A DNA stretch of 63,752 nucleotides, the filler included, from Hausera hauseri (lineage: Eukaryota): the NCBI GenBank assembly GCA_046269625.1. It is 10 parts of 10 records of this genome, joined end to end, with 100 filler letters (N's around TTAATTAATTAA, not from the genome) between each part and the next. Parts side by side here need not be neighbours in the genome. Positions count along the whole stretch, not along the records: positions 27,693 to 40,103 come from JBJURY010035556.1; positions 40,204 to 45,037 come from JBJURY010419921.1; 8 more parts are not named here. One strand, given 5' to 3'. Position 1 is the first letter of the stretch; every line of letters begins with the position of its first letter. A model generated the notes under the pieces. The model had not been told where the DNA came from. It saw nothing but the letters and a program-made list of their open reading frames with translations, and searched no databases. Positions 1-63,204 of the stretch are shown in pieces. The position numbers were made by a program, and so were the translations under genes.

Positions 1-213
1 ATAAATGCAAATATTGAAATTAAAAATTATGTGATGTTGATTTTAGATATGATTGATAAGTTTATTTATAATTAGTGCATTTATATATGTGAGTGATTTT
101 ATGTATGTGTTCATGTATTGCATTTATTGTGTGTATAGGGAGTAAAATTAAATAGGAACGGCAATTTGAGTAGGGAACTAGAGAAATAAACGAATTGAAT
201 AGCAGGTAGTAAA

Positions 214-16770: not shown

Positions 16771-16934
16771 CTCATTGGTTCTTGAGCATAGTATAAACAA
16801 TGACGGTAAGTATGTGGTGATTTACAATATGGGTGCATGGTTTTCATCTGTCTGTCCCAGTTTACCAAATCTTTCATTTACGTTTGGTTCAAATTGTTTT
16901 AATGCAAGCAAAACCCACACCATCGACGACAACG

Positions 16935-17731: not shown

Positions 17732-17732
17732 G

Positions 17733-18287
17733 ATGAGCATTTATTTGGTACTTGATATTAACAAATTATCAGAACATGAAAACAACAACAATACCGCTGA
17801 ACGGTTTACCATGGCGCTGGACCAGCTGTTCGATTTACGCCAGGGAGCCTGGGAAGTGACTTTGGCGGAATTCACATTTACATTTTCACCAATAACAATA
17901 CGTGAGAACAGTGAAATATACCATACTCTACTAAAACAATCTCCTGCATCTAGTCGTTTTCAGTTAGTCCGAGACTCTAATGGAACATTTCACGTTCGCA
18001 ATTACAAGCAGCAATATTTCCCGGTTTATATTTTTCATTTAAACAATCGATTGGTGCGAAAACACAAACATCCGATTGAATTGCAATTTAAATCACTAGC
18101 CGACGCTCAGGCACGGGGTTTTCAATCTGTCAATGTGCGTTCAAAAGGTCTACAGCTCGGTGGACATAGTATAATTAGTGAAAAATTGAACTTTTCCACT
18201 GCGAAAAGCACCGATATTACAGTGAACTGGCAAAAGACTGAATCATTCTTTTACTCTCATACAACAGAAATTGGTTTTCTTACGGAA
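17733..18287 (+). CDS. Maverick minor capsid (penton-like) protein, truncated by contig end
   Basis: MSIYLVL...NTAERFTMAL...GAWEVTLAEFTF N-terminus; follows integrase; paralog at 60065. Confidence 0.7.
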
Positions 18288-18387
18288 NNNNNNNNNNNNN
18301 NNNNNNNNNNNNNNNNNNNNNNNNNNNNNNNTTAATTAATTAANNNNNNNNNNNNNNNNNNNNNNNNNNNNNNNNNNNNNNNNNNNN

Positions 18388-19109: not shown

Positions 19110-22100
19110 TTTGTTTAACATACTGAGAAAATCATTGATAAATAGGTGATGCCAAAAAGAAACTGGACTTGCTTTTGAACGTGCTTTCGTCTCAACAAGA
19201 TGATTTAGATGTACGAATGTTTGCTGGAATACTTTGCCGTCGTTTATTGGATTCGTATTTCAAAGAGGCCTTTTCAATTTTACCGAAGGAATCCCAAACA
19301 TTTACCAAGCAGAAGCTATTGGAGTGGATCGTAAATGAAAACCAACCGACGATTCGTAAGAAATTGTCGGAAATCACAATTGAAATCGCCAAAGAGGATT
19401 TCGATGACAATGGAAATCTATTGTGGCCGGCATTGTTGCAGTCTGTCTTCGACGGTTGTCTCAATTCGACGGATGATGGATTGAAAATCATCGGTTTGCA
19501 AATTTTCGGTGCTTTTCCGAACTTGTTGGGCAAACAAATGGCAACGAATATCAATTCAGATTGTCACATTTTCATTAAAACGATGAACCAAACGACCGAT
19601 GGGGGATTGTTGCAAAATCTGGAGATTCGGAATGATAGTGTGAAGATGTTTTCACCGTTTATTGTGTCGCAGGTCGATGAGAAGAGTCCGTTTCGGCAGA
19701 TGGTTAATATTGAGCCGATGACGTTGCAGACAACGGCAGATTCAATGACGTCAAATCCGACTGATGTTGGCATGAAGGCGCTGGTCGATCTTGCGGATTC
19801 GGTGTCGGAATTTTTGAAATGTCGTACGAGTGATGTTTTGCAATTGTGTTGAATACATTGCACAATGGCGATGTCGACGATTCACAAAAACATTTGGCCG
19901 TGGAAACATTCGTGACATTATCCGAGAACATTCCCGGTGCCGTCACGAAATGCAGTAATCACATGCAGGAGATTATTCATATTTCATTCAAGATACTGAC
20001 GGAACTCGAGGAGGATCCTGAATTGTCGACATTGGATGTGGAGGAAGATTAGGATGACACGAGCCCGAGTATTATTGCCGAAATGGCATTGGACAGAATG
20101 TCAGGTGCGAAGCGCAGTAAGAAAGTTCTGCGTGACATAACTCATACATTACCAGCGATGCTGCACAATGCTAAATGGCAGAAAATACATGGCGGATTAA
20201 TGGCCATCTCGTCATTTGCTGAGGGATTGAGTAAAGTTATGGAGGAGATTCTCGGGTCAACTATTGATGAGATTTTCCCATTATTGAGTGACACTCATCT
20301 TCGTGTTCGTTATGCTGCATGCAATGCTATTGGTCAGCTACCGACGGATTTCGATGATAAATTACAGAAATGTTTCCATGGAAAAATACTGCCGGCATTG
20401 ATGTCCGTATTGGATGACAACATGTATCCTCGTGCCTAGGCATATGCTGGTGCTGCTATGGTCAGTGCCTTTGAAGCGCTACCAAAGAACATTCTCCTTG
20501 TCTATTTACCAACACTCGCCGAGAAATTGCTGCAATTTCTCCAAAATAATTACAACGAATTCCTACAAACCGGCCGTAAATTAGTTTTGGAACAAATCGC
20601 CACAACAGCCGCACTTGACGATTCACTGGGCGAAAAGTTCGCATCATACTATGATAGTTTCATGCAATTTCTGAAATTTCTCATGCACCAATGCAATAAC
20701 GATTCATTGAGATAATTACGTGGCAAAACAATCGAATGTACTTCCCTCATGGGATTGGCCGTTGGTCGCGATCTATTTTTCCCCGATGAAAAAGACTTGC
20801 AGTTTTTACTGAAAACGCAAACTGCCGATGAAGACGATAGTGATGCTAATCTTTCTGACGATCCACAGCATAGTTACATGATCAGTGCGTGGACACGTAT
20901 TTGCAAATTGTTGAGTAAATCGTTTGCTGAATTTCTCCCATTGGTCATGAAATGTGTCCTGAATACCGTCAGTATCAAACCGGATGTCTGCATGATGTAC
21001 AACGATGAAGCGGAAGACATTGACAAAAACTGGAAAGTCGTGAAAATTGCCGGCAATCAGAATTTTGCAATTTACACGTGTGGACTGGAGGACAAGGCAA
21101 TAGCATGTCAAATGCTCGTTTGTTATGCACAGGAATTGTCAGATGCGTTCTATCCGCACGTGAGGCAAGTAGCCGACATAATAATTCCATTATTGAAGTT
21201 TTATTTCAATGACGAAGTACGCAGTAGTTCAGCAGACATTATGTTGTATGTAATTGACTGCAGTCGTCCATTGGGTCATGTAACAACTGATGGATTGTGG
21301 GCGAGAATGATCAATACATTCTTGAGTACAATTCCCAATGAACCGTACAAGACACAAATTGCGGACATGATGGAGGCACTGGCAGAAGGAATCAAGAAAA
21401 TGGGAAGGAAGTCTGTCAGTCCTGAACGAATGCCGTTGTTAATTTACATAATGAACATTTTGATGAGATATTCAAGAATCAGGATAGTCGAATACGGAAG
21501 ATAAAGTCGGATGAGTACGATGAGGAAGATGAGAATCTACAGACGGTCAAAGATAAAGACGACGACATTCTGTGTAAATTAGTCGATATCATGCATTCAC
21601 TGTTCCTGTCGTATAAGAATGACGCATTGCCGGTATTTTAGTCATTCTTACCAAATATCATGAAATTGCTCGAAACTGGTAGATCATATGCGGATATGCA
21701 ATTTGGAATTTGTTTTTGGGATGATCTTATGGAATATACCGGTCCAGTTAGTTGGCGGTACTGTCAGAATTTCCTGCAGGCCATGTTTGGTGGGCTGCAT
21801 CATGAACAGAAGGAAATTCATCATGCAACAGTTTATGGATTTGGTGTATTGATAATGTGTGGAGGACCAGATTAGAGTAACATTCTCCGGGAGGCATCGC
21901 CAATTCTTGTTAGTCTAGTCGAGACATTGTTTACACGGGATGAGTCGATCAGTATCACTACAGAAAATGTCATCGGTGCATTGACGAAGATCTGTAAATA
22001 TCGACCGGAATGTGTACCGGATGGTGATTTGAATGGATTCCTCAGTAAATGGATAAATTGGTTGCCAATCTGGGAAGATGTAGAAGAAACACCACATGTA

Positions 22101-22373
22101 TTCGGATTTCTTTGTGATTTGGTAGAGAACAACAATGCAGTAGTTATTGGACACAACAACAGTAATTTACCGCACATCATGAAGGCTATCGCATATTGTC
22201 TGATGAAGGATGGATTACCAGATACGAGTCCGGTTCATGGTAGATGTTTGAATATCGTCAAAATGATCCAGTCAGATGGTGATTGCTTCTCGTCCTGTTT
22301 CAACAGTCTTTTCAAGGAAGAACAAATTGCACTGCAGAAGGCAATCGAGAAATCGGTGAATTCATGTCAGTGA
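19110..22373 (+). pseudogene. IPO5: Importin-5 (karyopherin beta-3) intronless pseudogene
   Basis: HLAVETFVTLSE, MALDRMS, RVRYAACNAIGQL, LVLEQI, RGKTIEC, DDPQHSYMISAWTRICK, GLEDKAIACQMLVCYA, LLKFYFNDEVR, WLPIWEDVEE; no introns; at least 6 stops/frameshifts. Confidence 0.9.
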
Positions 22374-30099: not shown

Positions 30100-33000
30100 C
30101 TAAAACGTTTTCTGAGCATTCTTTACGGACTTTCTCTGTCTCTTTATCATATTAGTCTCTTCAATGTCGTTAACTGATGGCTCAACACATTTTCGTTTCC
30201 TGCTGTAATTTGGTATTCTTTTACAATTTTTTCCCAAGGCCATGAAAGAAAATTCATTGATTCTTTCCATTTGGTTGTTGAGAGTTGATACCCATCTTTT
30301 TCTCGATTTTTTCCCTGTATTTTTCTCATATTCATCGTCATCATATTTAACCTCCTTTATTTTCTTGCCTTTAATACATCCCAAAATTTCTCTTGCAACT
30401 GTTGCTTTGTCATCTATGTCTGAATCAAAATATATACCCATTGAACTAAAGTTTTGAAGAAACGTTTTTTGTCCTCTGCTTACTACGGATGACTTTCCAT
30501 ATGCACTAATCAACGCTCTATTAATTACTGGATAATATTCAGACTCGATAAGAGCACCAACAAGATGTGATGTATCTGTCAATTTAATTCGGACAACGTT
30601 CAGTTTCAGCAGAGAATTACAAGCAGTGTCAATGTGTTTCCAAGCAGTACACACAGATCCCGATACCACACAATACTGCTTCCTCCGTTTTCCATATCGA
30701 CAGCAACACGAACCGTTCCATAGAACATGCATGCACTTGTCCATACTCTCTATAAACGCATGCTTCCACATTAATTCAGCTCTATCGACATCTATTTGAA
30801 TCCACATTCTTTTGAATTCTTCAATCGCTAATTGTTTTGGCGGAAAGTTTGGCGTAATTAGCACTACGGAATTTGGGCTGTCTGAAACGACAAGAGCAAC
30901 TATTATTTTTGCTGAATTTGGAATACAAAATGTGCTGCATTGACCGGCTTCCGTATACATTTTTATGGCATTTTCCCAGTTTGTGCCTTCGTATATATTT
31001 TCCACTTTGTGTATGTATATACTTCCTGATGGATTGATGAATCGTTCTGTCGAAATAAGTCTGATTTGTCCGTTTTCACATCCAACATCTCTCGTTCCGT
31101 AGTCGTATTCATTCAACTCTTTTGCTTCTTTTATTTCCAATTCCATAAGGTGCATAAAGTATTGATAAATTGCATTCTGGACATTCAATTCGATACCAAG
31201 TAAACGATTCAGAAACTTATTAACGGATATTTCTTGGTCATCATCTAGCCCAACGCTTGTCAAACTCGTTCTTGCCAAATTCTGAAACATGATTTCGTCA
31301 AACATATCCAGACATACTTTAGGCACATCTAAAAATGCGTTTGTGCCAAATATGTTTTTCAGAAGCTTCTGTATGGCTCGCTCGGCATACTTGTTATCAA
31401 TATTAAATTTGGATAAATCAAGCATTTCAGATGACTTTCTATCACCTTGAGTAAATGCACCAAGAGTCTGTAATCGTTTTGCGATGGAAGCCACAAATCG
31501 TTTTTCTCCATCGAGATCAGATATAAGTAACACATAATGAGGAGCCACAACCTGGTTTGATCTATGTGTTCGACCGAACTGTTGAATGACTTTGTCGGCT
31601 GACCATGGTAATTCAAGAGTTATGTGAAGTCTTTGACTGTTGTTTTTAAATCGTCTGTCAGAGTGTAAGGATATACCAGTGCTAGCAACGTCCGAAATTA
31701 TGGAAACTATTTTTTCCCCCGAATTAAATAAATCCTTTTCGTATAAATTGACTTTTTCAATAGTAAATTCATTTTGTATTCGCGATTCGTAACGAATTTT
31801 TCCATCATCATTCATGATTACTCGACCTCTTCTTCCGGTTAATTCTGAAACGAAATCCGGACCACCAAACATTAAAATCAGTTCGTCCAAAATATTGTTT
31901 GGTAGTAATTTTCGCAGATCGTCTAAAGATTTTAGTAAATTTTGTTTTGTCTCATTATCTAAAAGACTTGATAAATTTTCTCTCATATCGTCATGTTCAT
32001 TTTCTTGAATAAATTCTTCCACTGTGTTGTATTCTAAATTTCTCTTTTCTGTGAGAAGATTTGTAAAAGTATCATAGGCAGCCGAGGGAAACTCGTTAAG
32101 AATTCCATTCTGTTCTTCTAATAATCGGTTCGTATTCGCCTCACCAGTCGATTGAATTCCAATAACCACAGACTTGTTGTTGATTAAGGCCGAATTACTG
32201 AGTTCAAAGCATTTGGTCAATTTTGCTGATAGACAAAGTTGTTTGAAAAATCGTTGATGAGCAGCCCAGAAAACTTTATGAAATGATTGGTGTTTTGTCT
32301 TCCTTGATAGCGAATCAGTCGTGAGAGCATTATACAATTTGGTCCACAGTGTTACACAGAGGTCATAAATTGTTCTGAAATTGTATCCTTTTATTTGTAC
32401 GCTAGATGTTTCTACAACCTGAACTTCGCAGCTAACGTCCTTGAAACTTATTTGTCTGGACATGTACAGACCTTTCGATTTCATTTCCATAGCTATCAAT
32501 TCCAACGCACTAACATCATGCTTTAAAAGGAATTCTTCAAAATATTTGAATTCTGTAAAACAACTGCCTTGTCCCCACAAGCCCAGACGCAACATATATG
32601 CCATATGCTTAGGTTCTGTAGCTCCAGTTGCACTCACGTATACGATGCGACTATTTGGTAGAAACTGTTGGATATCAATGACAGCTTTGGCTGTTTTTGT
32701 TGTTCCAATCACATTTTTTGCTTTGTGGCATTCGTCAAAAATAATCAAGCCATCGAAATCTTTACCGCACCATTCTAAAATTTGATTTAATCGGCTTCTT
32801 TGAAGTCCTAATTTTTCTTGACAAATCACACAATTATAGCTTACAAACAGAACTCCATTTTGTTTATTAATAGGGTCATATGACATTTCACTCAAAGAGT
32901 AGATATCGACATTTAATCCAATGTCCTTTAAATCTCTTTCGGCGTCTTCTTTCAGCACATTTGAAACAGATATCCAAATGGCTTTCTTCCGATTTGCAAT

Positions 33001-33531
33001 AATATTCTCATATATAATTCCTGCTATTGTTCTACCTTTTCCAACTCCCGTACCATCTCCAAGAAAGAATCCTGCTCGACATTTATCTGGTAAACGTTCT
33101 TCATGTTTCTGACAAGCATAAATGATGGCTTCCACTTGAGCGTTTGAAAGTCGACCGTCACTTATAATGCTTGATGGAATTTGTAGCAGATATGTCTGTT
33201 CAGGTGGCCTAACAATAGATAATGAATATGACTCAACTAATGAAGTAGTGTGAGGCAAACCTTCATTTTTTATCGATGATTTATATTCCTGAAATGTACT
33301 GTTGTTTGACAATTCTAGATCTTTAAAAATATGTTCCCAATTCTGCTTTCCATACAACCAGCGAAGGTATGCATTCGTCTGCATTGACGACGAATTTATC
33401 ACAGGTATTTGTGTAGTCTGTAAATTATTTACAGAAACAACAGACGACGTATGAGCGTAACCACATTGAGATTCGTAACTCTTTGGATTCATAATGATTG
33501 ATTTTAAATAGGATTTGTTACCATATGACAT
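30100..33531 (-). CDS. SBNO: Strawberry notch family SF2 helicase-like protein, intact and intronless (1143 aa)
   Basis: LSNAQVEAIIYACQKHE, GFFLGDGTGVGKGRTIAG, IIFDECHKAKN, YVSATGA, FWAAHQRFF, SELTGR, GISLHSD, LELPWSADK, QQFGRTHRSNQ, FLNRLLG. Confidence 0.93.
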   Translation of the reverse strand: MSYGNKSYLKSIIMNPKSYESQCGYAHTSSVVSVNNLQTTQIPVINSSSMQTNAYLRWLYGKQNWEHIFKDLELSNNSTFQEYKSSIKNEGLPHTTSLVESYSLSIVRPPEQTYLLQIPSSIISDGRLSNAQVEAIIYACQKHEERLPDKCRAGFFLGDGTGVGKGRTIAGIIYENIIANRKKAIWISVSNVLKEDAERDLKDIGLNVDIYSLSEMSYDPINKQNGVLFVSYNCVICQEKLGLQRSRLNQILEWCGKDFDGLIIFDECHKAKNVIGTTKTAKAVIDIQQFLPNSRIVYVSATGATEPKHMAYMLRLGLWGQGSCFTEFKYFEEFLLKHDVSALELIAMEMKSKGLYMSRQISFKDVSCEVQVVETSSVQIKGYNFRTIYDLCVTLWTKLYNALTTDSLSRKTKHQSFHKVFWAAHQRFFKQLCLSAKLTKCFELSNSALINNKSVVIGIQSTGEANTNRLLEEQNGILNEFPSAAYDTFTNLLTEKRNLEYNTVEEFIQENEHDDMRENLSSLLDNETKQNLLKSLDDLRKLLPNNILDELILMFGGPDFVSELTGRRGRVIMNDDGKIRYESRIQNEFTIEKVNLYEKDLFNSGEKIVSIISDVASTGISLHSDRRFKNNSQRLHITLELPWSADKVIQQFGRTHRSNQVVAPHYVLLISDLDGEKRFVASIAKRLQTLGAFTQGDRKSSEMLDLSKFNIDNKYAERAIQKLLKNIFGTNAFLDVPKVCLDMFDEIMFQNLARTSLTSVGLDDDQEISVNKFLNRLLGIELNVQNAIYQYFMHLMELEIKEAKELNEYDYGTRDVGCENGQIRLISTERFINPSGSIYIHKVENIYEGTNWENAIKMYTEAGQCSTFCIPNSAKIIVALVVSDSPNSVVLITPNFPPKQLAIEEFKRMWIQIDVDRAELMWKHAFIESMDKCMHVLWNGSCCCRYGKRRKQYCVVSGSVCTAWKHIDTACNSLLKLNVVRIKLTDTSHLVGALIESEYYPVINRALISAYGKSSVVSRGQKTFLQNFSSMGIYFDSDIDDKATVAREILGCIKGKKIKEVKYDDDEYEKNTGKKSRKRWVSTLNNQMERINEFSFMALGKNCKRIPNYSRKRKCVEPSVNDIEETNMIKRQRKSVKNAQKTF

Positions 33532-33733
33532 TTTAATTTTTCGAAATTATCATTTAACTTAACTGTATTGGCTGCTTTGATCATAATTCCAAAAGTGTAA
33601 TATTTATATCATATTTGTTAAAATTATATAAACGATATTGGTTGAAATTAATCGACATAGTTCCGTTTTCAAAAAAGTTAATTAGTGTATTCTTACTGTG
33701 GTACATTTTTAAAGTAAAATATTTATCCGATCA

Positions 33734-36373: not shown

Positions 36374-38961
36374 CTTAGAAACATCTGTTTAGATTATTAT
36401 GAAATATTTCCGTGTTACATATATTCTGCACCAGGATTAACATGACAAGCAGGAATGAAATTCACTGGTATGAACCTTGGTGAAGCTTGACACGGCTTAA
36501 AATATTACAAAGAAGAAATATACGATAAACTTGTATTTTTTGAAGAAGGAATAAGAGAAGGGGTTACAAGTGTGTTAGGAAATAGAAATATCAAATGTAG
36601 TAATTCATATACACAAGAGAAAGTTAACACCTATATGAAGTTGAATAATTATGAATTAGATGTTGTTATGAATGATTTGCACGACCAACATGAAAAAAGA
36701 AGAGTAACCCAAATTTTAAAATAGATTTGAGGAAGTACCCAGAACCAAATTATTAAATGTATTATTACGCAAATTCTTTGTATGCATCTGCAATGACATT
36801 AGAATTACCAACAGGTGAAATGGAATGGAGGGATGATTTAAATTACGTGCGAAGTTTGAAACGTAGTGATGGATATGTGTATGAAGTAGATATAAAATAT
36901 TCATATTCCATCAAAGAACAAACAAAATATTATCTATTTTGTCCAGAGAAGATTGAACCAAAAGAAGAATTGTTTAGTGCTTGTCAGAAACGCATAACAC
37001 CGCACAATTACAAAGCAGAAGAGAAACTAATTTTAACCCAATTTGATAAGAAATGCATAAAAGAAGGTAGAATGTTAAATTGGCACCTAGATCATGATAT
37101 TATTTTAGAAAAAGTTTATCGAAAATTAGTTTATGAAAAATCAAATTGGTTAAAACAATATATAGAATTCAACATTGAAAAACGAACTGAAGTAAAGAAG
37201 AATGGTGATGACTTTGGTGATAATTTCTTTAAACTATTAAATAATTCATTTTATGGAAAAACATTAGAAAATATTAGAAATAGACAAAATAATGAAATTG
37301 TGAGTAATAAAGAGAGATTTAGAAAATTATCAGGTAAACCAATTTTTAAACATTGTAAAATATTTGATGAGGAAGTTGTAGCAATTTACATGTTGAGAAA
37401 TTCAATATATATGGATAAATTTAATCATATCAGTTTTTCCATACTAGAATTAAGTAAATTAATGATGTACAGATTTATTTATGATGGCTTATATAGTATT
37501 TATACAACTGATAAATGTAAAATAGATTTTACTGGTAGTGTAACAGAGGACACGCCAATTATTTTAAAAAAGAATGGAAAAATAAGAATTAAAAAAATCT
37601 CTGAAATTTCAAACAAATGGAATTTATTGCTTGAAAAAGAATATCAAGAACCTAAACATTTAGAAATTTGGACAAGAAATGGTTGAAAGAAACTCATGAA
37701 AGTAATTAGACATAAAAGAAGTAAGAAAATATATAGGGTAAGAACAAAATTAGGATTTGTTGATGTAACAGAAGATCATTCATTATTAAATAAAAATAAC
37801 CAAGAACTAAAACCAGATCAATTAATAGTGAATGAAGCTAAATTATTACATAATAAAATATTCCTTAATGATAACAAAATTACATTGAAACAAATATTCG
37901 AAGATATTTATGAAAATGATGCCACTTTTATAGAAGACAAATGGGCATCTCTTTGAGGGATTTTTGGTGATAATTCTTCAGGAATCTATCGCTATCAAAG
38001 TGGAACAAAACACTGTTGTACATTTAATAACCAAAATTTATTCCTATTACATAAAATAAAGAAATATGTTAAAGAAATATTTAATAACGATTGTAAAATT
38101 TATGATACAATGAAAAGTTCTAATGTTTATAAATTAAATATTATTAAACCAAAATTTTTTACAGAATATTTTTCAAAAAATTATTACAATAAATTTCAAA
38201 AAACTAAACGTGTACCAGAATTTATTTTGAACGCAGATAATAATATTAGATATTGGTTTTTTGTAGGATTTTACGCTGCAGATGGAAATAAGCGTTTTAA
38301 TGAAAGGAATAAGACTATTGGATTTACCCAAAAAGGAAAAGAATGTTTTAGTGGATTGTATTATTTAGCAACATCAATAGGAATAAATATTGTTGTATCT
38401 GAAAGATGGGATAAACCCAATTGCTTTAGTGCTGCACAATGTAAGAAGGATATCACAACAGAAGTAAGAACAGTACGATTCCTAAGACAAAGAGAAGAAT
38501 ATGTTTACGATATAGAGACTGAGGATGGATCATTTAACTGTGGATTTCCATTGATTGTAAAAAATACTGATAGCTGTTTTGTTGAAATAAAGGATAAATT
38601 AGATAATATTAAGGAAAACTTAAAAGAATGGATAGTTCCAAATGTTTTAGGCAAAATTAAAGATGAATTAGAAGACGATTACATTACAGAAGCAGTGTTT
38701 TTAAAAGCAAAATGTTATGACTATGAAACAGTAAAAGACAAAAAAGTTCAAAGATGTAAGGGAATTAATAAATATAATAAACTAACAATTGAAGAATATA
38801 AAAATGTCTTATTTAATAATGAAACAATTTATAAAAGAAATTATGGATTAACGTCTGATCACCATAATATTCAATTATATAAACAAAAGAAAATTGCACT
38901 TGATCCATTTGATGATAAAAGATTTTTCATGAATTCTGTAAATAGTATTCCATTTGGATAA
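36374..38961 (+). pseudogene. Maverick/adintovirus-type pPolB C-terminal half, intein-containing
   Basis: YSAPGLT*QAG, FFEEGIREG, YANSLYASAM, KLLNNSFYGKTLENIRNR, SILELSK, split motif C (FTG|intein|TDSCF), GKIKDE, FLKAKCY, ALDPFDDKRF; 36757-38961 is one frame with two TGA stops. Confidence 0.9.
37537..38565 (+). mobile_element. Intein (~343 aa) with LAGLIDADG homing endonuclease at the Pol-c site
   Basis: Block A SVTEDTPIIL; block B VDVTEDHSLL (TxxH); endonuclease motifs L*GIFGD and FFVGFYAADG; block F YVYDIETEDGSF; ends IVKN followed by +1 Thr of TDS. Confidence 0.9.
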
Positions 38962-40228
38962 AAGTGATTTTTTAAAAAGATTGATAAATTAAATCAAAGT
39001 GATTTTTTTGTTTAGCGGAGCATATTTTTATCCATTTATAAAAACAAAAAATTTTGTAACAAAACTTTTTGGATTTATACCTTATTAATAATTTATCTTT
39101 TACCTCAACTAAAAATTTCATTTCTTTTCTAATAACATTCTTAGTTTTTCTATTATTTCGTCTTTCACTAAAAAAGTCTCATTATTATTCTTATTTTCTT
39201 TGTTTGTTCCTTTCTTATTTAAAGAAGTTTTACTTAAAGCTTCCAGACCAATTTTACACTTAATAACAATGAGCAAAATGTAAGAACTTCATCTTATGGC
39301 AGGCTCCACAGACATTTCATCAGCAAGGTACACTATAGGTTTGCATGCTTTCAGAGTCATAAAGCAACTTGTTACAGCTTTGAACGCTATTTTATGTTTA
39401 GCTTTTTGCTAGTTTAGCTTTTTGCATTTTAGTTCTGTTTTAGCTTCAACTCAGTATCAGCATCTTTGACAAATTTCATCGAGCTCATTCAGCTCTCAGC
39501 GATCAAACCACATTAAATATTGTTCCTGTTGTTCAGTGATTTCATCCGTTTTTCTGTAACTTAAATAAAAAGTCGGTCAAACCAGCCACAGCTGAATGTA
39601 AAGGATCTGCGATCTGAAGGTGTGAAAGCCCCAAACAGTTTTTGGGAACACGCAGTGAGTGAAGTCCTGGACCAGTAAAACTTTCAAAGCTGAGCAGCAA
39701 AGAGAAGCAGGTGGATTTCAGCTGGTACTCCCATCAGCACCACGGCTGCTGGAACAGGTGATAAACTGGTTTTCACACCGTGTTCTCACTGATATCACTG
39801 CTGACCATTAGCATGGGGGTGGGGGTGGAGGGAGAGAGAGAAGAGATAATAGGAGGCACAACTTAAACGATCGAGAGTCAGGCGGTTTTTATTTGTGAAA
39901 ATATGGTGTCGACATCATAGAATGTCTTGTGTCGAGAAATGTGAGATAGGTCCAAGGCGCCCCACTAACATTTGACACCAGCGTATTTGGTCTGTCAGTG
40001 AGGAATATCTTGCACGTGACGCTTACATTCGAACTGCGGTAATTGTTTGCGTCCTTTTAAAATGGTTTTATAGGAGCAAATATCAACATCGTCCTGATGA
40101 TTANNNNNNNNNNNNNNNNNNNNNNNNNNNNNNNNNNNNNNNNNNNNTTAATTAATTAANNNNNNNNNNNNNNNNNNNNNNNNNNNNNNNNNNNNNNNNN
40201 NNNACTTTTCGCACGCATCGCGTGACCA

Positions 40229-40310
40229 ATCACGTGACGCGTGGGCGGATATCACGTGACGCGTGGGCGGATCACGTGACGCGTGGGCGGATCACGTGAT
40301 GCGTGGGCGG
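40229..40310. repeat. Four tandem 20-bp units ATCACGTGACGCGTGGGCGG (E-box plus GC-box), probably LTR U3
   Basis: Units at 40229, 40251, 40271, 40291; polypurine tract AAGGGGGGG on minus strand at ~40312-40320 directly adjacent. Confidence 0.85.
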
Positions 40311-41050
40311 ACCCCCCCTTGTTCAAGAACGCTCTTTTTTCCCCTACTGAGCAGATAAGTTCTAACGTTCTCGTTAGAAGTTTGCACTTGATTTTATCTT
40401 GCGGGTACTGCGTGCAATGAATGCTCAAATTACAAATTCTAGTCTTAGCTATGAATGTTACAAAAGATTTTAAGCCTTAGGGTAGTCCAAATCCCTCTTA
40501 AAGAGCGACGAAAAAACTATGAGATTTTACAACACAAATATATTAAATAACAAGAAATATACCACACCTTCTAAATACAAGTTAATATCAGAATCGTCCA
40601 ACGGGAAATATACAATTCACGAATCAAATCAGTAATATCGTCAGCAATGAATAACGTCAATCTGCAATTCTTCTGGCTTCGGTTATCGATCTGTACTCTC
40701 GACTTCAAATTGTTCACTTCTCATTTTGTACACTGGTTTATATATCATTTCCATTATCTGTTTATTTTCCGTTCCCACGACCATTATTGGTTTTAATATA
40801 ATATTTACAAAGATTATTCACCCGTTTAATCATATTTACATTCATTTTCCCACAATTGTGATACTATTTACAACTTAATCGTCTTCATGTGTCAATTCTT
40901 ATCAGTAACAATTCATTAATTCACACACGATAATTGTAGATTCACATTATTATCTACACATAAACAATTGGTAAATTCACACCATTATTTACAATTTATG
41001 CCATACAGAGTTTTCGATCATTTAGCCACATTATACTACATTTCTCCTCC

Positions 41051-42316
41051 CTAGACGGCACTTTCGAATGAGCCCATTGCGTCAGTAGAGATGCCGGTAG
41101 TTTGTCGTAATTGCTCCATTCGTCCGCGTAAGTCCGCTTCCGAATCTACTTCATTTGAGGGTGATCGCGAGTCAATATAATAGGACGTACTGGCTTGTTC
41201 AGGAAATATTTCTACAATTTTATTTTCTCCGTTCGAATAATATCTTAGCCTAGTGGCTTCGGCTCTACACACTGGGCAGGTCGTCTTCCCATTCTTCAGG
41301 GTCCACGTTTCTAAACAGTATCGGCAGTACTTATGACTGCAGTCTTTGTTATCTAGGACTACGAATCCTTGGTATAGATCTGCATCACAAACAGGGCATT
41401 CTTCTTTTTCAGCCGCATCAATATCCACTAGGTTTTCATCCACTTCTATTCTTTCGAACACCAGTCCCTTTTTATCTTGATATAAATATCCATATAGTCT
41501 CTTTTGTTTGGGGTCTATCGAACTTTTTCTGGGGTCGTCAGATACTGCTACTAGGGTCCATTCGACTATTTCTTGTTTGTCCAGATCGGGAATTCCTGTC
41601 TTCTTGTATTGTCTTTTTAACTGAATTCTAACTTGAGTATCCACAGGAATTGTTAGTCGGTTAGTGCCACTTTTTGATTGAAATATGGGGGCTAGGTATC
41701 TGCCAATGGTGTGGTCCTCTTTAGCATAACCATTTCCGCTTACTATTCTTCTGGGAACAGTTGACACGTAAAATACGGCTTCCTTGATTTTCCCTTTACT
41801 GTAATATTCGGCCATAACGAGAATTCTTTTATACTCCTTTACTTCCCCGAATTCCGTAACCACAATCGGAATATCTTCGTCCCAGTTCTTCCTGAGAACA
41901 TTGACTTCTGATCTAATGACTTTGGATTTCGCGATTTCCAACGATTTTTCATTTTCCCTTTTCTTTTCTCGATTCGATAATGCTCCTTGATTGTCTTTGG
42001 ATTCTTCCGAATTTGAGTTGTCTAGAGCGGTTCTTTTACTAGTCTTGCTTCGCTTTTTGTGGATATAATCTAGGAAAGAGATTTTTATCTTGTGCTTCTT
42101 GGGAATTTCCATGTCGTCTGCTCTGGATCTCGGTTCTTCTCGGACCTTACTGGTTGATGGCTCCAACGAACTACTCAAGTTTCCCTTTTGATTATTCGGT
42201 ATTGTTATTCTAATTTTGTTTGTCCCTTGATTTTCTATTTTCGGATAACCAGGGTATTCACTAAATCCTTTTCGGAACTTCTGTATCAGAGATTTTGGGT
42301 TATTTTCAGACATCAT
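41051..42316 (-). CDS. C3HC4 RING-finger protein (putative E3 ligase), element accessory ORF
   Basis: CPVC-x15-CSHKYCRYC-x12-CPVCR; intact 421-aa ORF. Confidence 0.85.
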   Translation of the reverse strand: MMSENNPKSLIQKFRKGFSEYPGYPKIENQGTNKIRITIPNNQKGNLSSSLEPSTSKVREEPRSRADDMEIPKKHKIKISFLDYIHKKRSKTSKRTALDNSNSEESKDNQGALSNREKKRENEKSLEIAKSKVIRSEVNVLRKNWDEDIPIVVTEFGEVKEYKRILVMAEYYSKGKIKEAVFYVSTVPRRIVSGNGYAKEDHTIGRYLAPIFQSKSGTNRLTIPVDTQVRIQLKRQYKKTGIPDLDKQEIVEWTLVAVSDDPRKSSIDPKQKRLYGYLYQDKKGLVFERIEVDENLVDIDAAEKEECPVCDADLYQGFVVLDNKDCSHKYCRYCLETWTLKNGKTTCPVCRAEATRLRYYSNGENKIVEIFPEQASTSYYIDSRSPSNEVDSEADLRGRMEQLRQTTGISTDAMGSFESAV

Positions 42317-42331
42317 GTTCTGTATGGGATC

Positions 42332-43495
42332 TCATCGTAAATGGTCGTACACATTCTTGACACATTTTGTTCGTTGACTCGCGGTCATTAATTTCGGAAA
42401 TTTAAATCCTTCGCCGTTTATGGCTTCAAGCATCATTTTGAATTGTGATTCCTGTGATGCTGTTGTTGGAAGTAGGCATCCTCGCCTTCGCATTAGGGTG
42501 TTCTCCACTTGACTCACAATGGCTGGGTTCCGGCTTATTTCTCGTATGCCTGCTATGTATTCTGGTCTAATTTTTAATCGTTCTAACTCTTCATGTACCC
42601 GGAATCCAGTAATGATATATCCATACAAACAATGACTGATATTCTCTTGAATCTCCAGGAAATCTTTTTCCTTCTTGAGCTGTGGTTTTGTGATTCCAGT
42701 GACATCGGGAAAGGTATCTTTTATTCTAACTCTCGGCGCGATTATTCTGTTTAAAACTTCTTCTCCGTTTGTGTTTCTAATCGATATTTCGATCGGAAAA
42801 TACCATCCATCATCCTTTTCTCCGTAGTTTACTGCTAAAATTCGGGTATTCCGACCGTCTGGGACCAATCGGTATGATTCCCCACTTTGTTCAATTTCAT
42901 CTTCTGAAGGTTTTTGTATATAAATCAGTGGGGGTAATGGTTTCATCAATTTGGTTCTCCACGTCATTTCGATCATAATTTTGGTGGGAATGTCCGCAAT
43001 TCTAAATTCTAGGGCATAATCCATAAGACTAAAACAGCATAGTTCGTATGTGCTAAACTTCCACTGTTGCCCTTTTTGTGTACTCCAGGATTGTCCTACG
43101 ATCCTGTATTGAATTTCTCCATCAGCGACATGTATATACATTTGCTGATGCGTTGGTTCATAAGGAATTAGGTCTCTCAAATGGTACACTCGTACATCCT
43201 TAGGACTTCTCATGGCATATAGCCGAACCAATCTGTTCTCTTCTAGCCCCCATTTTAACCCATTAGGTATTTCACTTTCTCGGGTAAATTCCCGATAGTT
43301 GGTATTCTTCAGATTTTCTCCAATTTGTCGATACAGACTCTTTGATAAGGGTTTCAGGACCGTAACGTGCTGCTGTAGGAAACTGTCGATGTCGAAGCTG
43401 GTTGAGGAAATCTTCGCCTTCTCGGTCATACTTACTTTGCTGAAATAAAAATAGAGGTTAAGCCTAAGACAGATCATCGTTTTGAAACAAAACAT
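42332..43495 (-). CDS. Protein with C-terminal DEDDh exonuclease-like (ISG20/REX4-like) domain, catalytic residues apparently degenerate
   Basis: EISIRNTNGEEVLNRIIAPRVRIKD...VTGITKPQLKKEKDFLEIQENI...IITGF resembles the REX4/ISG20 core; likely start MTEK at 43429. Confidence 0.6.
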   Translation of the reverse strand: MFCFKTMICLRLNLYFYFSKVSMTEKAKISSTSFDIDSFLQQHVTVLKPLSKSLYRQIGENLKNTNYREFTRESEIPNGLKWGLEENRLVRLYAMRSPKDVRVYHLRDLIPYEPTHQQMYIHVADGEIQYRIVGQSWSTQKGQQWKFSTYELCCFSLMDYALEFRIADIPTKIMIEMTWRTKLMKPLPPLIYIQKPSEDEIEQSGESYRLVPDGRNTRILAVNYGEKDDGWYFPIEISIRNTNGEEVLNRIIAPRVRIKDTFPDVTGITKPQLKKEKDFLEIQENISHCLYGYIITGFRVHEELERLKIRPEYIAGIREISRNPAIVSQVENTLMRRRGCLLPTTASQESQFKMMLEAINGEGFKFPKLMTASQRTKCVKNVYDHLR

Positions 43496-43534
43496 TTTAT
43501 CTGTCTGATGATAGGATAACCCGATCAGTAATTG

Positions 43535-45037
43535 TCAGGTTATGGTATCATAAGGTTCGTCTTGGTACCCTTTTACCCAATAAACTCCCTTTCGATTTTT
43601 AACGCGTTTTTTATAATTTTTGGAGACTAGAAAAATCACCGCTATTATTACGATAAGAACGGAAATTGACACACTACATATAGTTATTATTGGTAGATTG
43701 TTCGGTTCGGTAGAACTTTGTGTCGTGAATACGTCTAGAGTACTGATATCATGATACGACATTGCTTCAATTTTATTACCGAGCGTTCGTACCGTAAACG
43801 TTTTAGGGTTTTTACCCTCTGCGGTCATTCTGATTATATACTCATGTTGCGGTCGTAACGACTTACACGCCGTTCCTAAACTATTCTTTTTCAAAATCAC
43901 AACTTGGTTAGTATGCAAGGTACGACACTCAATTTTGACGTCTTTATTTAATGTTTCTTCAGCATAGAATAGGATTCTATCATTTTTCACTAATATTTTG
44001 ACTGATATGCTTCCTGGCATTTCGCTCGCAGTAATAATCGTAATACTGCGAGTTGTGCTCGGCGTCGTGGATGGTTTTCCCGTAGTGGTCGGAAGTGGGA
44101 GTTCCCATATTCCATTTTTGGGACGATATCCTTTTAGGAAAATACTCCGTTCACCTGGATAGGTGTCGTACAAATCAAATTGTATTTGGTATTTTTGTCC
44201 TAATCGGACTACGCAGCATACAGTGGGACGTCTGTTGCCCAGTGAACAATATGCTGGTCTAGGAATAGAGGATTCTAACGGCGTAAGCTGGACGGAGATT
44301 TCCTTGTCCTCCGGTATGCCAAATTGGGTCTTGATCCTAATACATTGGTTCTTTAAGTCCTTGTGTATTCCGACAATGTTGTCATCCAAGATTCTATTAA
44401 TCGGGTTGGTGCTTCGAATTATTTCATTTGTTTTAGCTTCATTGGCGTCCCTTTGTTGTGGCATTCGTATCGTGAGCTCCGAAGCTATGTCGGCTTGAGC
44501 TCCAAATTTATAGGAATAGAACAGCTGAAAGCTATATCTATAGACTTTTCCGAAATCTAAATTACAGCATCTCCTGTAACGTCCATATGGAAAATCACAT
44601 ACTCTTGTATCGTCTCCGGCAGTTACAAATGTTATTTGAAATCCTATGTGGCTCGGAATCGGTTCGTCTGTTTCGAACCATGCACATGGTTTACTCCAGT
44701 CCATATCGCGTACTCTGAGTGTCCGTAAATTTCGAATATCCTTTTGTTTTTCAGCTTTGGCGCTCGATTTCACCGTGGGCATATACGAAGCAATTAACGA
44801 TAAGGCTAGGATTATCTGTACATAAGATATCGGTCTATTCACTATCGATGACGTCTTCTTTTCTTTAATTGTTTTACCGGAACGTAGATTGTAGCGTTTG
44901 TCTGGTCTTATCTCGGTTTTGACCACCCTTTGAATTGATGTGACTTCTTCTTTACCATTTTTGTTTATGTAAACTGTAGTCGGCGTAGTTTTCGTAACTT
45001 CGTAAGGTCCTCTACCTGTCCTGGTAAGCTTAAGAGA
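43535..45037 (-). CDS. Gypsy integrase C-terminus fused in-frame to an env-like type-I membrane protein (5'-truncated by contig end)
   Basis: Frame open from 45037: RGPYEV (GPY), RYNLRS, then hydrophobic ISYVQIILALSLIASY, Cys-containing ectodomain, T/S-rich stalk, TM IITICSVSISVLIVIIAVIFLV, basic stop-transfer and Tyr-containing tail. Confidence 0.75.
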   Translation of the reverse strand, partial: SLKLTRTGRGPYEVTKTTPTTVYINKNGKEEVTSIQRVVKTEIRPDKRYNLRSGKTIKEKKTSSIVNRPISYVQIILALSLIASYMPTVKSSAKAEKQKDIRNLRTLRVRDMDWSKPCAWFETDEPIPSHIGFQITFVTAGDDTRVCDFPYGRYRRCCNLDFGKVYRYSFQLFYSYKFGAQADIASELTIRMPQQRDANEAKTNEIIRSTNPINRILDDNIVGIHKDLKNQCIRIKTQFGIPEDKEISVQLTPLESSIPRPAYCSLGNRRPTVCCVVRLGQKYQIQFDLYDTYPGERSIFLKGYRPKNGIWELPLPTTTGKPSTTPSTTRSITIITASEMPGSISVKILVKNDRILFYAEETLNKDVKIECRTLHTNQVVILKKNSLGTACKSLRPQHEYIIRMTAEGKNPKTFTVRTLGNKIEAMSYHDISTLDVFTTQSSTEPNNLPIITICSVSISVLIVIIAVIFLVSKNYKKRVKNRKGVYWVKGYQDEPYDTIT

Positions 45038-45476: not shown

Positions 45477-48144
45477 TTAAAAGGGTGATGTTGCGTCAAC
45501 AGCAGAAATGTTGTGGATAAAAGCAGGGGAAAAACAAGGAATAGAAATCGTTAATAAAAGGCATATTAAAAAATGTTTGCCAGACGAATAGTACACAGTG
45601 ATAAATCTCACCTCATTGTGTACCAGTATCCGTTCAATGCTGTCCTTGGGATCTGTGAAACCATTCTTGTCCAACGATGGTATTCGAAAGAACTGTCGAA
45701 ACTTCGATAAAACATCTTCACAATTTCGAATGGGAAATACTTCGAATCCGTAGGCAATGCAAAGTTTTAAAAACCTTAATATATGTGAATTGGCCCGCGG
45801 TGATTTGCTGGACATTTCGACTGTAGCATAATGAATGTAATATAATGCAGCGATCAGTCCCAACTTTGTCGGCGGTACATCATTGGCATTTTCTTCATTG
45901 TTATAAGCCATATTTTCGTAATTTTCTAAATATGAAAGAAGCTTCGGTGTCACGATATTCCAAATATGAGGCAAATTCTTGTAGAGAATATAAACAAGCA
46001 CTTCAATGGTCTTGATTATACTCAACCATCTGTAGTTGGTTGATAAAGGAACTCCAGCAGGAACCAATAATCTAGCGATAAGAAATTGCGGCTGAGGAAT
46101 GTTGAATTGAGTGTTGTAGTCTATAATGTAATATATATATCATAGTATACATCGTTAGATTCTGGTACGTTATCATCAGCACTGTTGCTTCCATCAATAT
46201 CACTGGTTATAACTTTTGAAAATAAAGTATATACAGGGTTGCAAATGACATCAAACCATTGGTATGTGGCTAAATCCAATTGGGAGTTTTCCCTGTTTAT
46301 TAATTGAGTGTAGTTATCGAAACGGGTAGAATTCGGTTCAATGGATGGGGAAGGATTCCATGCTGTAATTAAAATACATTTTAGAATACTGGACGCAGTA
46401 TTAATTCGATCAGTCTTTTCCTTACTTTGCCGCTCGGTTCTATCAACTTTCAACTGTTGTGCAACAGTTTCAATTATATCCTTTAACGGTACGGTAAATG
46501 GATCCTCACAAAAGTCGTAGAATCTTATTCGAAACGTAGGATCTTTGGAATTGTTCGTGAATTGAAACTCAACATGATGCGACTCAAACAGATCATATCG
46601 ATTATACTTTTCCATCTTTCTTAAGACTTTAAGTGCGGTGCGATTTACTTGATACATATTTTGGATACATATTTTGATATAAATAATCCGAAACATGTTG
46701 TTAATGCATAAATCTAACGTTCTTAAACGCTGGGTTATTATGTTGCATGATAAAACATAAACGAGCGGTTCCATCAATAGCAATAAATGAGGTAGTAATG
46801 TACTAAGTCTCACGGGGGTGATAATACAAAGTTCACTGAGTAAATCCCGTACTTGATTGGTATGCAGTGATCTTGACAAAGCGCTCAAACTATTCAACAT
46901 ATGGTGCAGCAAAGGCAAAAACTGCCTATATAGTCTTTCGTGAGCTCCACCACCAAATGAATGAAATAAATAGCGTAAAAGGCAAATGAAAATACTGGGA
47001 TCTTTTGCGTAAAGAGAATATTTTATACAGTCCAGTATAATACGTCTAAGATGCATCTCTAAAATATTTTCGAAGCAAGCCAAATTTCTATGAATGGAAT
47101 TGAAAATTAACTTCAGCAACTGAATATGTAAGTTGGCCTCGGGTGTACCTTCCCCGATAATCTCTATGTTATCAAGTACGATAATATTAGATTGGCGAGT
47201 ATAGCCGAATTTGTTCCCTGTTCTTCTTGAGAACTGCTCAAAATAATTTGGGATAACTCTAATCCAATATTTCTGTAGAAATACTGGTTGTAGTGATAAT
47301 TTCTCCACTGCGCTGACTGATTCTGTATTGATTTCTATAAAATTGCTGTGAATGTCATCCTTCATCTTTTCACACTTAAAAGAAGAGTGATGACCAAGTC
47401 GACATCCATGAAATGCTGCATTCAATTTCTTGAAAAATATCAACAGAGCTTTTTGCAGCAATTTCCCGGAATCAAGAGGTGTTGCAACTGCATAAGCGAT
47501 TTCCTTTGGTCTGTACAAAAGTTCGAGATAGTATATATCCCACTCACGAATTGCATATGGTGAAACAGTTAGACATTCCTTTTCTTTGTCAGGATAGCCA
47601 TCAGACAAACACAATGGGTTGCCTTCAAATGAAAAGTGACTAAGACTATTTGACCTTTTTGTCGAATTGATGTAAATGAGTTGTTCATAAATCTGTTGCT
47701 AATTGACAACTGCGAAAACATTGAAGATACGTGATTATTGTGATTAGAATTGGATAAAGTGGATGGTCGCCGATATGTGAAAATCCCGGTAATGGATTGG
47801 AAGCACTACACACATCGTTTGTTGAAGGCTTTCCAGTGAACACCATAAACTGGAAGGGGTTGTGGTTTGCACGACTAGACATTACCTCTGCCCGCAAGAC
47901 GATGAAATGACTTCCATGTCAATGGCCCATCTATCTTTTAACTGGACTCCAATATTCTAGTGTTGCTGACAGCTTCTTGAAGTAATGGTTGTAGCGTCAT
48001 TAATAATCTAATTTGATCGTTATGATTTTGTGGAATCGGAACGTCTTTTTTAGAATTAAAAATTGTACTGACTAATTGCCTATCACGTTCGTTCGTTAAC
48101 CGGTTAATTCTTGAATCTGAAAACTGAACTATGTTCGAGAGCAT
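45477..48144 (-). pseudogene. TRRAP: TRRAP/Tra1 internal fragment, intronless and disrupted
   Basis: LLKLIFNSI, LLRYLFHSFGGGAHERLYRQFLPLL, ELCIITPVRLSTLLPHLLLLMEPLV match the TRRAP HEAT region; broken into several ORFs. Confidence 0.8.
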
Positions 48145-60065: not shown

Positions 60066-61094
60066 ATGGGCATTTATCTGGTACTTGATAATAACAGATC
60101 ATTATCACAACATGACGACAATGACAATACCGCTAAACAGTTTACCATACACTTGGACCAAGCGGTCGATTTACGCCACGGAGCCTGGACGTGGCTTTGA
60201 TGGTATTCACATTTACATTTTCACCAATGACAATACGCCAGAACAGTGGCATTTACTTTACCCGTCAAGAAACGTACCCTATTTCAAGTCGTTTGAGGAC
60301 AATCCGACACAATAACCGATATACTCTTTGCAATTATTCGCAACAACATTTCTCGGTTTATGCTTACTTTTCAAACCACCTTATGAAACGAATGCATCGA
60401 AATCAAATTAAAATGCATGTTAAATCTATAACTGATTTTCAGTCAGCCAATGTACACTAAAAACGCCTACCGCTAGGTGGACATGTTATAATTGGTGAGA
60501 AATTGGACCTTTCATCCAATACAGAATCCGATATTAAAGTAAAGTGGACTAAGTCAAAATCAATATTCCGTTCATATATTATATCACACGATTTTCTAAT
60601 GGAAACGGAACTGGAATTGTGATAACGTCAAGAAAACGGCTACATTAGCTGTAAAGACATGTAAAATAAACGCAGATGGTCATATTTCCCTAACACTACA
60701 TGACAATGTAACATATTTTGCATTTGATGAATTATTGGCTCAAAATCTAGGTTTCTCAAAACGCGAATTCTATCAAACCGTTGTTGGACAATCTATTGTT
60801 GCCAAATACAAACCGCAACTTTATGAAGCATTTCATAGAATCAACATTTTAACGGACTTAACCAAATCCGTACTCGTTCGTGGAGAACGTAAGCAACTAC
60901 TGGCTTCTATCGAACTGGATTCTAACACGTACAAAACATTGGGTGAAACTGTTCGCGTTAATATGCTCAGTCACATGTATTTACCATTGTCACACAATAT
61001 TGTGCACAGTATTTCCGTGTATATGCTTGATGAATTTTGGGAACCCATTAAATTTCTGTTTTCGGCAACGACACATTTGACGTTACATTTTTGA
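60065..61094 (+). pseudogene. Minor capsid (penton-like) protein 1
   Basis: MGIYLVL...NTAKQFTIHL...GAW; C-terminus LLASI...MYLPLSHN...THLTLHF. Confidence 0.7.
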
Positions 61095-61140
61095 CGTTGT
61101 CAATAATAAACGAACTGCAATCATCATTGATATCATTGTG

Positions 61141-62162
61141 AATATGAGTATTTACATGGTGTTGCCGATAACTCCTCCGAACAATTCAGCCAGTGAATAC
61201 GTTGTAGATTGGAAAAATCCTCTGAATTTATCTGGAAAATGGGAAATTCCACTGACGGAATTTAACTTTCCCTACGTACCGGTGACATTGAAAGGTAGTA
61301 TGAAAATAACGTACAACAAGACTGTTATTGAAACCAAAACACATTCTTGTTCCCTGACACTTATTGACAATAAAATAATAGTTGGAGAATCGGTTATTCT
61401 CAGGACCAGTACAAATTGCGGTTTATACGGCAAGATGGGTGTTTTTATTTTAGCGGAAAACTTACATTTCGTGGTAGATTTTGAATTTACTGTCATTTTG
61501 AGTCCTCTGTTACGGCGCAAAAATTTGGATTTAAAAATACAAAGTACAACAGTAAAGATATTAAAAGTGAATATGCAGTTGCCCCAAGATTAAGTCCCAT
61601 ATATTACCAGACAACGGTGAAATTTACCTATACAGCCCCAAGGGTGTCAACGTCATACGTATCGATTGACGACAATGTCTATTGCGAATCTGTAGCACAT
61701 CTCCGTCAACACTTTTCTTCAAATCAAAAGTACAAGGAGATATTTAAAGTTTGAGAGTCAGATGCAAGTAGGTACATTAAATTTTAACAGGCTAAGCATA
61801 TTGTCGACATTTCATTGGATAAAGCTTTGGACATGGCAATGGATATTGTGAAACAGCGGTTGGAGGCGAAGACGGCGGCGGCACATGTTGCAACACTTAA
61901 ACTCACACTGAAAACTGGATTAAGTCAAATGTACATTTACGTGAGTGTCACCGAACAAATTTTTATCGGTGGAGTACGTGTACCGCTACTCCGTGCAGTT
62001 TATCTGGAAAGCAGCAAGTATATTGCTGGCGACAATGTCACTGTCAAGCTCGATACAAACAATGTTGAAGTGAAAATCCGACGTGATGCGGGCTACGTTA
62101 TTGAATTTCCGTACGGTACCGCAACTTCTCTAACTCTTCATTTCCGTCGAAACCACGATTGA
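61141..62162 (+). pseudogene. Minor capsid (penton-like) protein 2
   Basis: MSIYMVLP..NNSASEYVVDWKNPLNLSGKWEIPLTEF; MYIYVS...VPLLRAV...SLTLHFRR. Confidence 0.72.
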
Positions 62163-62344
62163 TTCTGAAATCGTTTCCATTTACAGTAAACCCCAGCAAA
62201 GCGGTGAACTGTAGCATTTCGTTGGTAAACAGTATGGCTCTGGATAATTGCGTAAAATTCGCTGGCAGTGGCTTCAGAAAACGACATAGAGCATCATCGA
62301 CTTCATCAAGTATAAACAAACGTCGTCGTGGTATGATTTTCGAT

Positions 62345-63204
62345 TGGTCGACAGAAAAATCGCATCTGCAAAATCTCATTTGTGTATATTTTACAAAGGC
62401 GCACCACAAGTTGTTATTGACAATGTGGCATTTGAAGAAATCTACCCTGTTGATTCGGTTTCAACGGACGATAATATTGACATTCAATTTAACATTATGG
62501 TATTGGACAATGGATTCCATGATTCGACTCAAACGCAGCGACAATGTCTTTTGTTCGAAAACTCCAGTTGCAAATCTCAAACCCATACTTAAAATTACCG
62601 AGGCACGATTGTACGTACGTTGTGTAAAGGTAAACCATCTGTGCTCATGGGACATTGATTGGGCTTGGAAATACAAAATGCCTGTTACCCATTACAACGC
62701 AGAGAACTCGTCTTTTACACCATACCCAAAGGTTCAACAACGTTTTGCAAGGACACACTGATTGGAGACATGCGATTGCCGAAATTTGTACTCGATACAT
62801 TTCAAACGATTGTTCAACAAACGGCAGTTATACCCCCGATTCGGAAACGTTTACCCATAGCAATATGAATTACAACTGTTTGACTAAAAATGTGGATTTC
62901 GTTGACACACTAGCAGGATTTCGAGAGCGGCAATTATGTTTGCACATATATGCAATCTATCATGCGCAAAATGGGTTTGCTGAACAAAAATATCAACGAT
63001 AGTATATTAATGGATTTGTTCAAGTCCACTTATCCATTCTGCACTTCTGTCCTGGCTCCAAAATATAACGCTGAACAGATTCAACCACCTCAGCAGGGAA
63101 ACCTTCACCTTGCTAAAGCATTTCAGCAGTCTACTGCGATGTACATTTACGGTGTATTTAATGCCGAGGTTGAAATAACGAAAAACAGAACCGTCGTTGT
63201 ATAA
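62345..63204 (+). pseudogene. Major capsid (double jelly-roll) protein remnant with internal deletions
   Basis: EEIYPVDS...IQFNI, LKITEARLYVRCVKV, MRLPKFV, YGVFNAEVEITKNRTV; position between penton and protease. Confidence 0.68.

Follow-up and report, generated by a model that had tools for sequence, protein, structure and literature searches.

A 4,834-nt contig of Hausera hauseri probably carries the 3' half of a likely Gypsy-type long terminal repeat (LTR) retrotransposon, which would encode a single-pass surface protein with fibronectin-III-like (FN3-like) domains and, as a minor readthrough form, the same protein extended by a likely dead RNase-fold cytoplasmic tail. The contig spans positions 40204-45037 of the window, that is, the whole 63,752-nt stretch analysed here, in which ten unrelated contigs are joined by N-spacers. 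The element occupies the entire contig and is truncated on both sides. Its minus strand holds three long open reading frames (ORFs), named A, B and C, and programmed readthrough at the UGA closing ORF A is, with good probability, the best reading of the A/B junction as predicted from the sequence. The parts on which this reading depends are as follows.

45037-43535, minus strand: ORF A, 500 aa, open at the contig edge
43534-42332, minus strand: ORF B, 400 aa from stop to stop, in frame with A
42331-41051, minus strand: ORF C, 426 aa, in frame with B
43529-43537, minus strand: ORF A stop with its CARYYA motif, UGA-CAA-UUA
43455-43522, minus strand: extended RNA stem-loop of 25 base pairs, beginning 12 nt past the ORF A stop

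All three ORFs lie in one minus-strand frame and are separated by single UGA stops. Stops make up 3 of the 1329 codons in this shared frame, as against 97 and 94 stops in the other two minus frames. The first AUG follows the stop after 39 nt (A/B) and 15 nt (B/C); the three long co-oriented ORFs packed 15-40 nt apart, as described in the original prediction, are thus present. That prediction had treated A and B as separate genes. Given the shared frame and the UGA-CAA-UUA stop, they are most likely one readthrough unit; neither the common frame nor the loss of nuclease acids described below had been part of the earlier account.

Readthrough is the best reading because of the motif, the stem-loop, the conservation of the junction and the similarity of a relative across it, taken together. 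CARYYA follows 9 of the 6760 stop triplets in the window, and of these only the ORF A stop is flanked by long frames, of 500 and 400 codons; at the other eight sites the frames reach 65 codons at most. The stem-loop (-25.6 kcal/mol; z -3.77; 0 of 200 shuffles) has the lowest z of the 156 coding-region windows. Both a CARYYA motif and a 3' stem are known to stimulate readthrough, the motif reportedly on UGA as well (PMC3542737). An in-frame stop followed by a conserved CAR-YYA, as in type I readthrough, is what the junction contains.

Conservation was followed in four sequencing runs over 43420-43600, with 491 pieces from run X1 and a complete table of 21 differences at shares of at least 3%. 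At 43528-43543, none of the four runs has a difference at this threshold or an indel. Ten differences fall at 43454-43527, and none of them creates a stop: four are unpaired, three keep the pair, one keeps it jointly with its partner's difference, and two break it (shares of 6% and 3%). The five with a share of at least 10% are all unpaired or pair-keeping. In all four runs, loose ends start at 43543, two codons ahead of the stop, and therefore unlike upstream sequences join a shared junction. Further, the only relative found for ORF B, P0001 (56% identity; 1 of 1630 candidates), is similar to it from codon 10 past the stop onwards (0 of 2000 shuffles).

The protein that would be extended is ORF A, whose parts are listed below.

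44783-44830, minus strand: hydrophobic signal-like stretch, aa 70-85 (hydropathy 1.57), conserved in the relative P0002
43754-44716, minus strand: three predicted FN3-like beta-sandwich domains (about aa 108-191, 221-312 and 332-428), a Thr-rich linker preceding the third
43622-43690, minus strand: single transmembrane helix (hydropathy 3.17), also in P0002 and P0003
43538-43621, minus strand: 28-residue basic cytoplasmic tail, ending in Y-x-x-I-T

In a single-sequence model of ORF A, the predicted local distance difference test (pLDDT) score is 60-75 within the domains, and the best Foldseek matches of the model are triple-FN3 fragments (E 7e-9). Two relatives were found among 1.84 billion representatives, namely P0002 (38% identity) and P0003 (44-47%). 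P0002 retains 10 of the 11 Cys, and both proteins terminate at the end column of ORF A, again in Y-x-x-I-T. An errantivirus-type env, with an F or gB fusogen, was considered for ORF A and rejected: the fold is tandem FN3-like, at moderate model confidence, and the matches listed in PDB or BFVD include neither an F-type nor a gB-type fusogen. Between signal and anchor, no internal fusion-peptide-like hydrophobic segment is seen, and the sole R-x-R-R site, situated in domain 1, has no counterpart in P0002. Of the entry or adhesion role proposed earlier, the adhesion-type ectodomain agrees with these data, whereas an F- or gB-type envelope does not. ORF A also contains the second region of above-chance RNA folding (43963-44212, minus strand; z -2.7 to -3.55 over five windows).

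ORF B, which would form the extension, is divided as follows.

About 43156-43028, minus strand: weak cupin-like signal in the N-terminal domain
About 42856-42530, minus strand: DEDDh-fold domain without catalytic acids

The best solved relatives of the nuclease half are SDN1 (E 0.01) and ISG20L2 (E 0.9; 0.02 with a profile). In the Atlas, RNase_T clusters are matched at 0.90-0.91, the best 10 of 10 matches being in the same clan. Each of these sources is modest, and an RNase T-like fold is what they indicate. The domain is likely a catalytically dead pseudo-enzyme, because motif I has changed from D-x-E to N-Y-G (N-L-A in P0001), motif II reads F...E with Asp replaced by Glu, and motif III does not align. 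An active DEDDh exonuclease of the REX4, ISG20 or SDN1 kind was rejected, as ORF B does not show the acidic D-E-D-D residues plus His. Thus, the ISG20/REX4-like nuclease of the original prediction survives as a fold, with SDN1 as its nearest support, but probably not as an enzyme. Inactive DEDD derivatives that retain an RNA binding function are described in piRNA biology, Maelstrom and EXD1 being examples (PMC5408684). For the N-terminal half, a profile of 13 E. coli cupins gives ORF B 7.6 bits (0 of 500 shuffles) and P0001 a score matched by 29 of 500, with an hhalign probability of 2%; the PDB cupin match is weak (E 1.4), and a comparison with AlkB gave no match.

Past ORF B, a second stop and a RING domain are found.

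42332-42334, minus strand: second in-frame UGA, context UGA-GAU; ORF C has its first AUG 15 nt further on
41401-41264, minus strand: C3HC4 RING within ORF C, after a charged low-complexity N-terminus and a middle domain

The RING has its eight zinc ligands complete and in RING spacing. It is matched by Pfam zf-RING_2 (E 1e-7), with zf-C3HC4 above the cut-off, and aligns with RNF4 and RNF8; the RING of the predicted E3 ligase is therefore borne out. None of the 4343 candidates passed in the homologue search for ORF C, and its middle domain has no match in the Atlas. The second UGA is in a poor readthrough context, with no stable structure 3' of it and no UGGGA motif upstream.

The ends of the contig bear on the class of the element.

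44882-45037, minus strand: likely integrase C-terminal tail (GPY at 45010-45002, YNLR at 44893-44882), in frame with ORF A and cut by the contig end
40323-41050, minus strand: AT-rich 3' untranslated region (UTR)
40312-40322, minus strand: polypurine tract candidate, with a second purine run at about 40333-40346
40204-40311, minus strand: likely 3' LTR start, with four 20-22-nt repeats, cut by the contig end

GPY and YNLR occupy aa 10-12 and 49-52 of ORF A, an order shared with the contig 1 Gypsy Pol. Scored by a profile built on the window's three other integrase tails, the 5' stretch of ORF A beats 991 of 1000 shuffles. The integrase reading of this end is weak to moderate: the motifs named in the original prediction are present, but nine shuffles score as high or higher and a Pfam search of the tail gave no match. 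Likewise, the predicted fusion of integrase and membrane protein is seen in the window, but P0002 starts just nine residues ahead of the conserved signal-like stretch, with Met at the position of the window's Val66 and without an integrase tail; therefore, the Pol fusion is seen in the window copy only.

At the other end, each LTR-like repeat has an E-box and a GC-box (4 CACGTG and 4 GGGCGG in total), and this part, which runs for about 110 nt up to the contig end, is the deepest bin of run X1. The 3' UTR does not fold stably (z -0.2). Its part at about 40350-40527, likewise without a stable fold, is common to far more pieces than the rest, depth being a weak measure, and loose ends lie at 40350 in three of four runs; it is possibly a shared cis-element. 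The element as a whole is likely a high-copy LTR retrotransposon of Gypsy type. As gag, reverse transcriptase (RT) and the second LTR fall outside the contig, its Gypsy membership is an inferred one.

Seven public runs, none recorded as RNA, contain part of the stretch. Run X1 alone holds 12,719 contig pieces over 30 of 30 bins: 1706 at 99% identity or above, 3498 at 95-99%, 5184 at 90-95% and 2331 below 90%. Pieces less than 99% alike number 11,013, and most of all pieces are 85-99% alike. The contig, therefore, belongs to a family of repeats that is both large and diverged, and single-copy host genes are excluded, as the original prediction had it; the copies are presumably dispersed. The same prediction held that the element looks young or selected; youth is not supported, since the window copy departs from most other copies at many sites. 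The accessory ORFs are kept in relatives at 38-56% protein identity, and this conservation points to selection more strongly than the share of synonymous differences does.

Several observations weigh against the account given here. At the junction, other windows of ORF A fold almost as well as the stem-loop (z -3.55). The invariant stretch of 16 nt is not significant alone (with 19 of 181 positions variable, the chance is about 0.17), nor is the keeping of the pair at 4 of 6 paired positions against 0.42 expected. The joint occurrence of the differences at 43484 and 43488 was deduced and not seen directly, and the base preceding the ORF A stop is C, readthrough being favoured by A. Runs X2-X5 repeat the differences of X1, with a depth about 1/100 to 1/1000 that of X1, and are not independent, as all may come from one organism. 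The longest listed piece is 442 nt, so that linkage of A, B and C in other copies is seen across the A/B junction only. Synonymous changes are 16 of 38 coding differences against an expected share of 0.29 (P 0.064; 40 of 892 differences listed, two non-coding ones dropped), a weak sign of selection. The ORF A model has a mean pLDDT of 55 and TM-scores below 0.3, and the model of B plus C a pLDDT of 32. Regarding the class, the contig 40204-45037 has no RT, integrase core, gag, primer binding site, second LTR or target duplication. The purine tract and repeat array predicted earlier are present, but the LTR-like part that follows opens with TC instead of the usual TG.

If the favoured account holds, the signal-like stretch of ORF A would lead the protein into the secretory path, whether it is released from a Pol polyprotein or has its own start near aa 66. 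Readthrough of the first UGA would involve a few percent of ribosomes, so that a short surface protein is abundant and a long form, presenting the pseudo-nuclease at the membrane, is rare. There, the pseudo-nuclease may bind RNA or a partner instead of cutting. The long form could thus tether RNA or ribonucleoprotein to the membrane patch that the short form marks; the cargo might be particles of the element itself or RNA-defence factors of the host. The RING protein would act as an E3 ligase and be made via reinitiation at the AUG 15 nt past the second stop. Judging from the domain types, the role is most likely adhesion or cell-contact targeting, together with interference with host defence, and not membrane fusion. 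Alternatively, the RING may be the end of the long form itself, which requires the second stop to be private to the window copy or also leaky. The product would then be a receptor-like ubiquitin ligase dosed by a leaky stop, with ectodomain, membrane helix, cupin-like domain, pseudo-nuclease and RING in one chain, coupling contact outside to RNA-guided ubiquitination inside; small-RNA defence might, for example, be stripped from a neighbouring or germ-line-facing membrane. We consider this extended version conceivable but doubtful.

It could also be that in the same element A, B and C are made separately, either from RNAs that are spliced or subgenomic or through reinitiation. The stop context and hairpin would then be kept for another reason, such as splicing, packaging or export. 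Spliced RNA is a common template for the env of Gypsy elements, and this is stated for plant elements in PMC2829016. AUGs lie 39, 57 and 105 nt past the first stop, the third without a listed difference in close copies. However, two of these AUGs sit within the stem, the similarity of P0001 starts upstream of them, and P0001 has V, N and V at the first three Met of the window's ORF B. As the stop that divides the two long in-frame ORFs carries an exact CARYYA, separate translation seems unlikely. That ORF A is a new envelope or cell-cell fusogen of an infectious, errantivirus-like retrovirus is improbable. That role would suit its place behind pol, where env lies, as well as the signal-like stretch, the one membrane helix and the basic tail, and a small membrane protein is known to allow envelope-independent spread (PMC11952523). 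The tandem FN3/Ig-like match of the ectodomain, together with the fusogen, fusion-peptide and R-x-R-R results above, speaks against it.

The two remaining explanations concern the nature of the sequence itself. A Bel/Pao element or a segment of an endogenous DNA virus, in place of a Gypsy element, would agree with the missing RT, the weak integrase-tail signal, the LTR-like part without TG and the Maverick-like remains in the window. Yet the GPY...YNLR order is that of the contig 1 Gypsy Pol, the purine tract stands immediately before an enhancer-like repeat array, and a search of viral contigs gave no match, making this assignment very improbable. Passive capture of functionless host retrocopies (a receptor, a REXO-like nuclease and a RING protein) in an LTR element finds some support in the intronless or broken host-gene pieces of the window and in the non-significant synonymous excess. 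No close host gene emerged from the searches for A, B or C, however, and the Cys, membrane helix and end point are kept in relatives at 38-56% identity. As 1326 sense codons stay open and the readthrough signal is kept, we regard such capture as very improbable.

Besides Gypsy elements, the other contigs of the window carry Maverick-like remains and animal genes poor in introns. At 199-5786 (plus strand), a Gypsy element has an intact-looking gag (341 aa) and pol (1524 aa; protease, RT, RNase H and integrase); pol lies in the -1 frame, shares 13 nt with gag and continues for about 200 Q/N/K-rich residues beyond its YNLR motif. Comparison of this element with that at 40204-45037 gave no similarity. 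A broken protein-primed DNA polymerase B of Maverick/Polinton-like type, split by an intein-like LAGLIDADG homing endonuclease, lies at 36757-38961 (plus strand). The same contig carries a strawberry-notch (SBNO) gene at 30100-33546 (minus strand), with 1148 open codons and no introns; its protein is 38-49% identical to the best 120 matches listed, and the host is therefore a fast-evolving animal. Pieces of TRRAP/Tra1 across two overlapping frames at 45477-47698 (minus strand) are likely a decayed retrocopy, as are pieces at 19142-22373 (plus strand) of what we take to be importin-5. Decayed frames at 16361-18335 and 60600-62761 (plus strand) resemble, judged by eye, Polinton/adintovirus capsid-region genes.

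Each part of this arrangement has a precedent. The readthrough of SIRE1, a Sirevirus of the Ty1/copia type from soybean, reportedly uses CARYYA. In SIRE1, an env-like ORF is expressed via stop codon suppression (PMC2829016), so that an LTR retrotransposon likewise reads through a single in-frame stop into a 3' accessory ORF. However, SIRE1 is a plant copia element with its leaky stop between pol and the env-like ORF, whereas here the stop comes after a membrane protein and its passage would extend the cytoplasmic tail. Type I viral readthrough includes the UAG-CAA-UUA coat-protein extension of benyviruses and pomoviruses and the tobamovirus replicase (PMC3542737). It shares the CAA-UUA after the stop, the 3' stem-loop and the gain of an extension domain by a minority of a structural protein; it differs in using UAG and not UGA, and here the signal belongs to an animal retroelement and the extended product is a membrane protein.

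Among animal elements, Juno and Vesta, LTR retrotransposons of bdelloid rotifers, carry a DEDDy ORF3 (PMC5408684), and thus a DEDD-family nuclease domain 3' of pol. Theirs is RNase D-like, stand-alone, with intact catalytic residues and without a membrane domain, whereas the present one is REX4/ISG20/SDN1-like, has lost its acids and is joined to a membrane protein. The giant gypsy-like Burro/GYPSM1 elements of planarians hold many host-manipulation domains in their polyproteins, RING-type and ubiquitin-related ones included (PMC6431247). These lie between gag and pol beside an F-type env, and an FN3 protein, a pseudo-nuclease or readthrough is not mentioned in the available text. Errantiviruses have F-type or HSV/gB-type env (PMC13524379), and, like the MDG1-group sORF2 elements (PMC11952523), encode a membrane protein after pol; ORF A has neither the fusogen fold nor the small FAST-like form. 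In the main text of PMC13524379, supplements not covered, the terms readthrough, exonuclease, RING and fibronectin do not occur. The present element behaves like a complex retrovirus-like element without an errantivirus env. The combination of a triple-FN3 membrane protein, readthrough into a pseudo-nuclease and a RING was not found in the open-access literature, within which it appears new.

To our knowledge, the third gene added by Gypsy elements encodes either a fusogen or one enzyme. In place of one such gene, the element of H. hauseri has an adhesion protein that resembles a receptor, next to a likely pseudo-nuclease and an E3 domain. Here, readthrough of the plant-virus type likely serves a membrane protein, whose cytoplasmic tail it would switch, and not access to a polymerase; the junction offers a signal of about 100 nt. 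Thus, the finding points to unsampled complex retroelements of animals, in which cell contact independent of an envelope may be combined with counter-defence functions.

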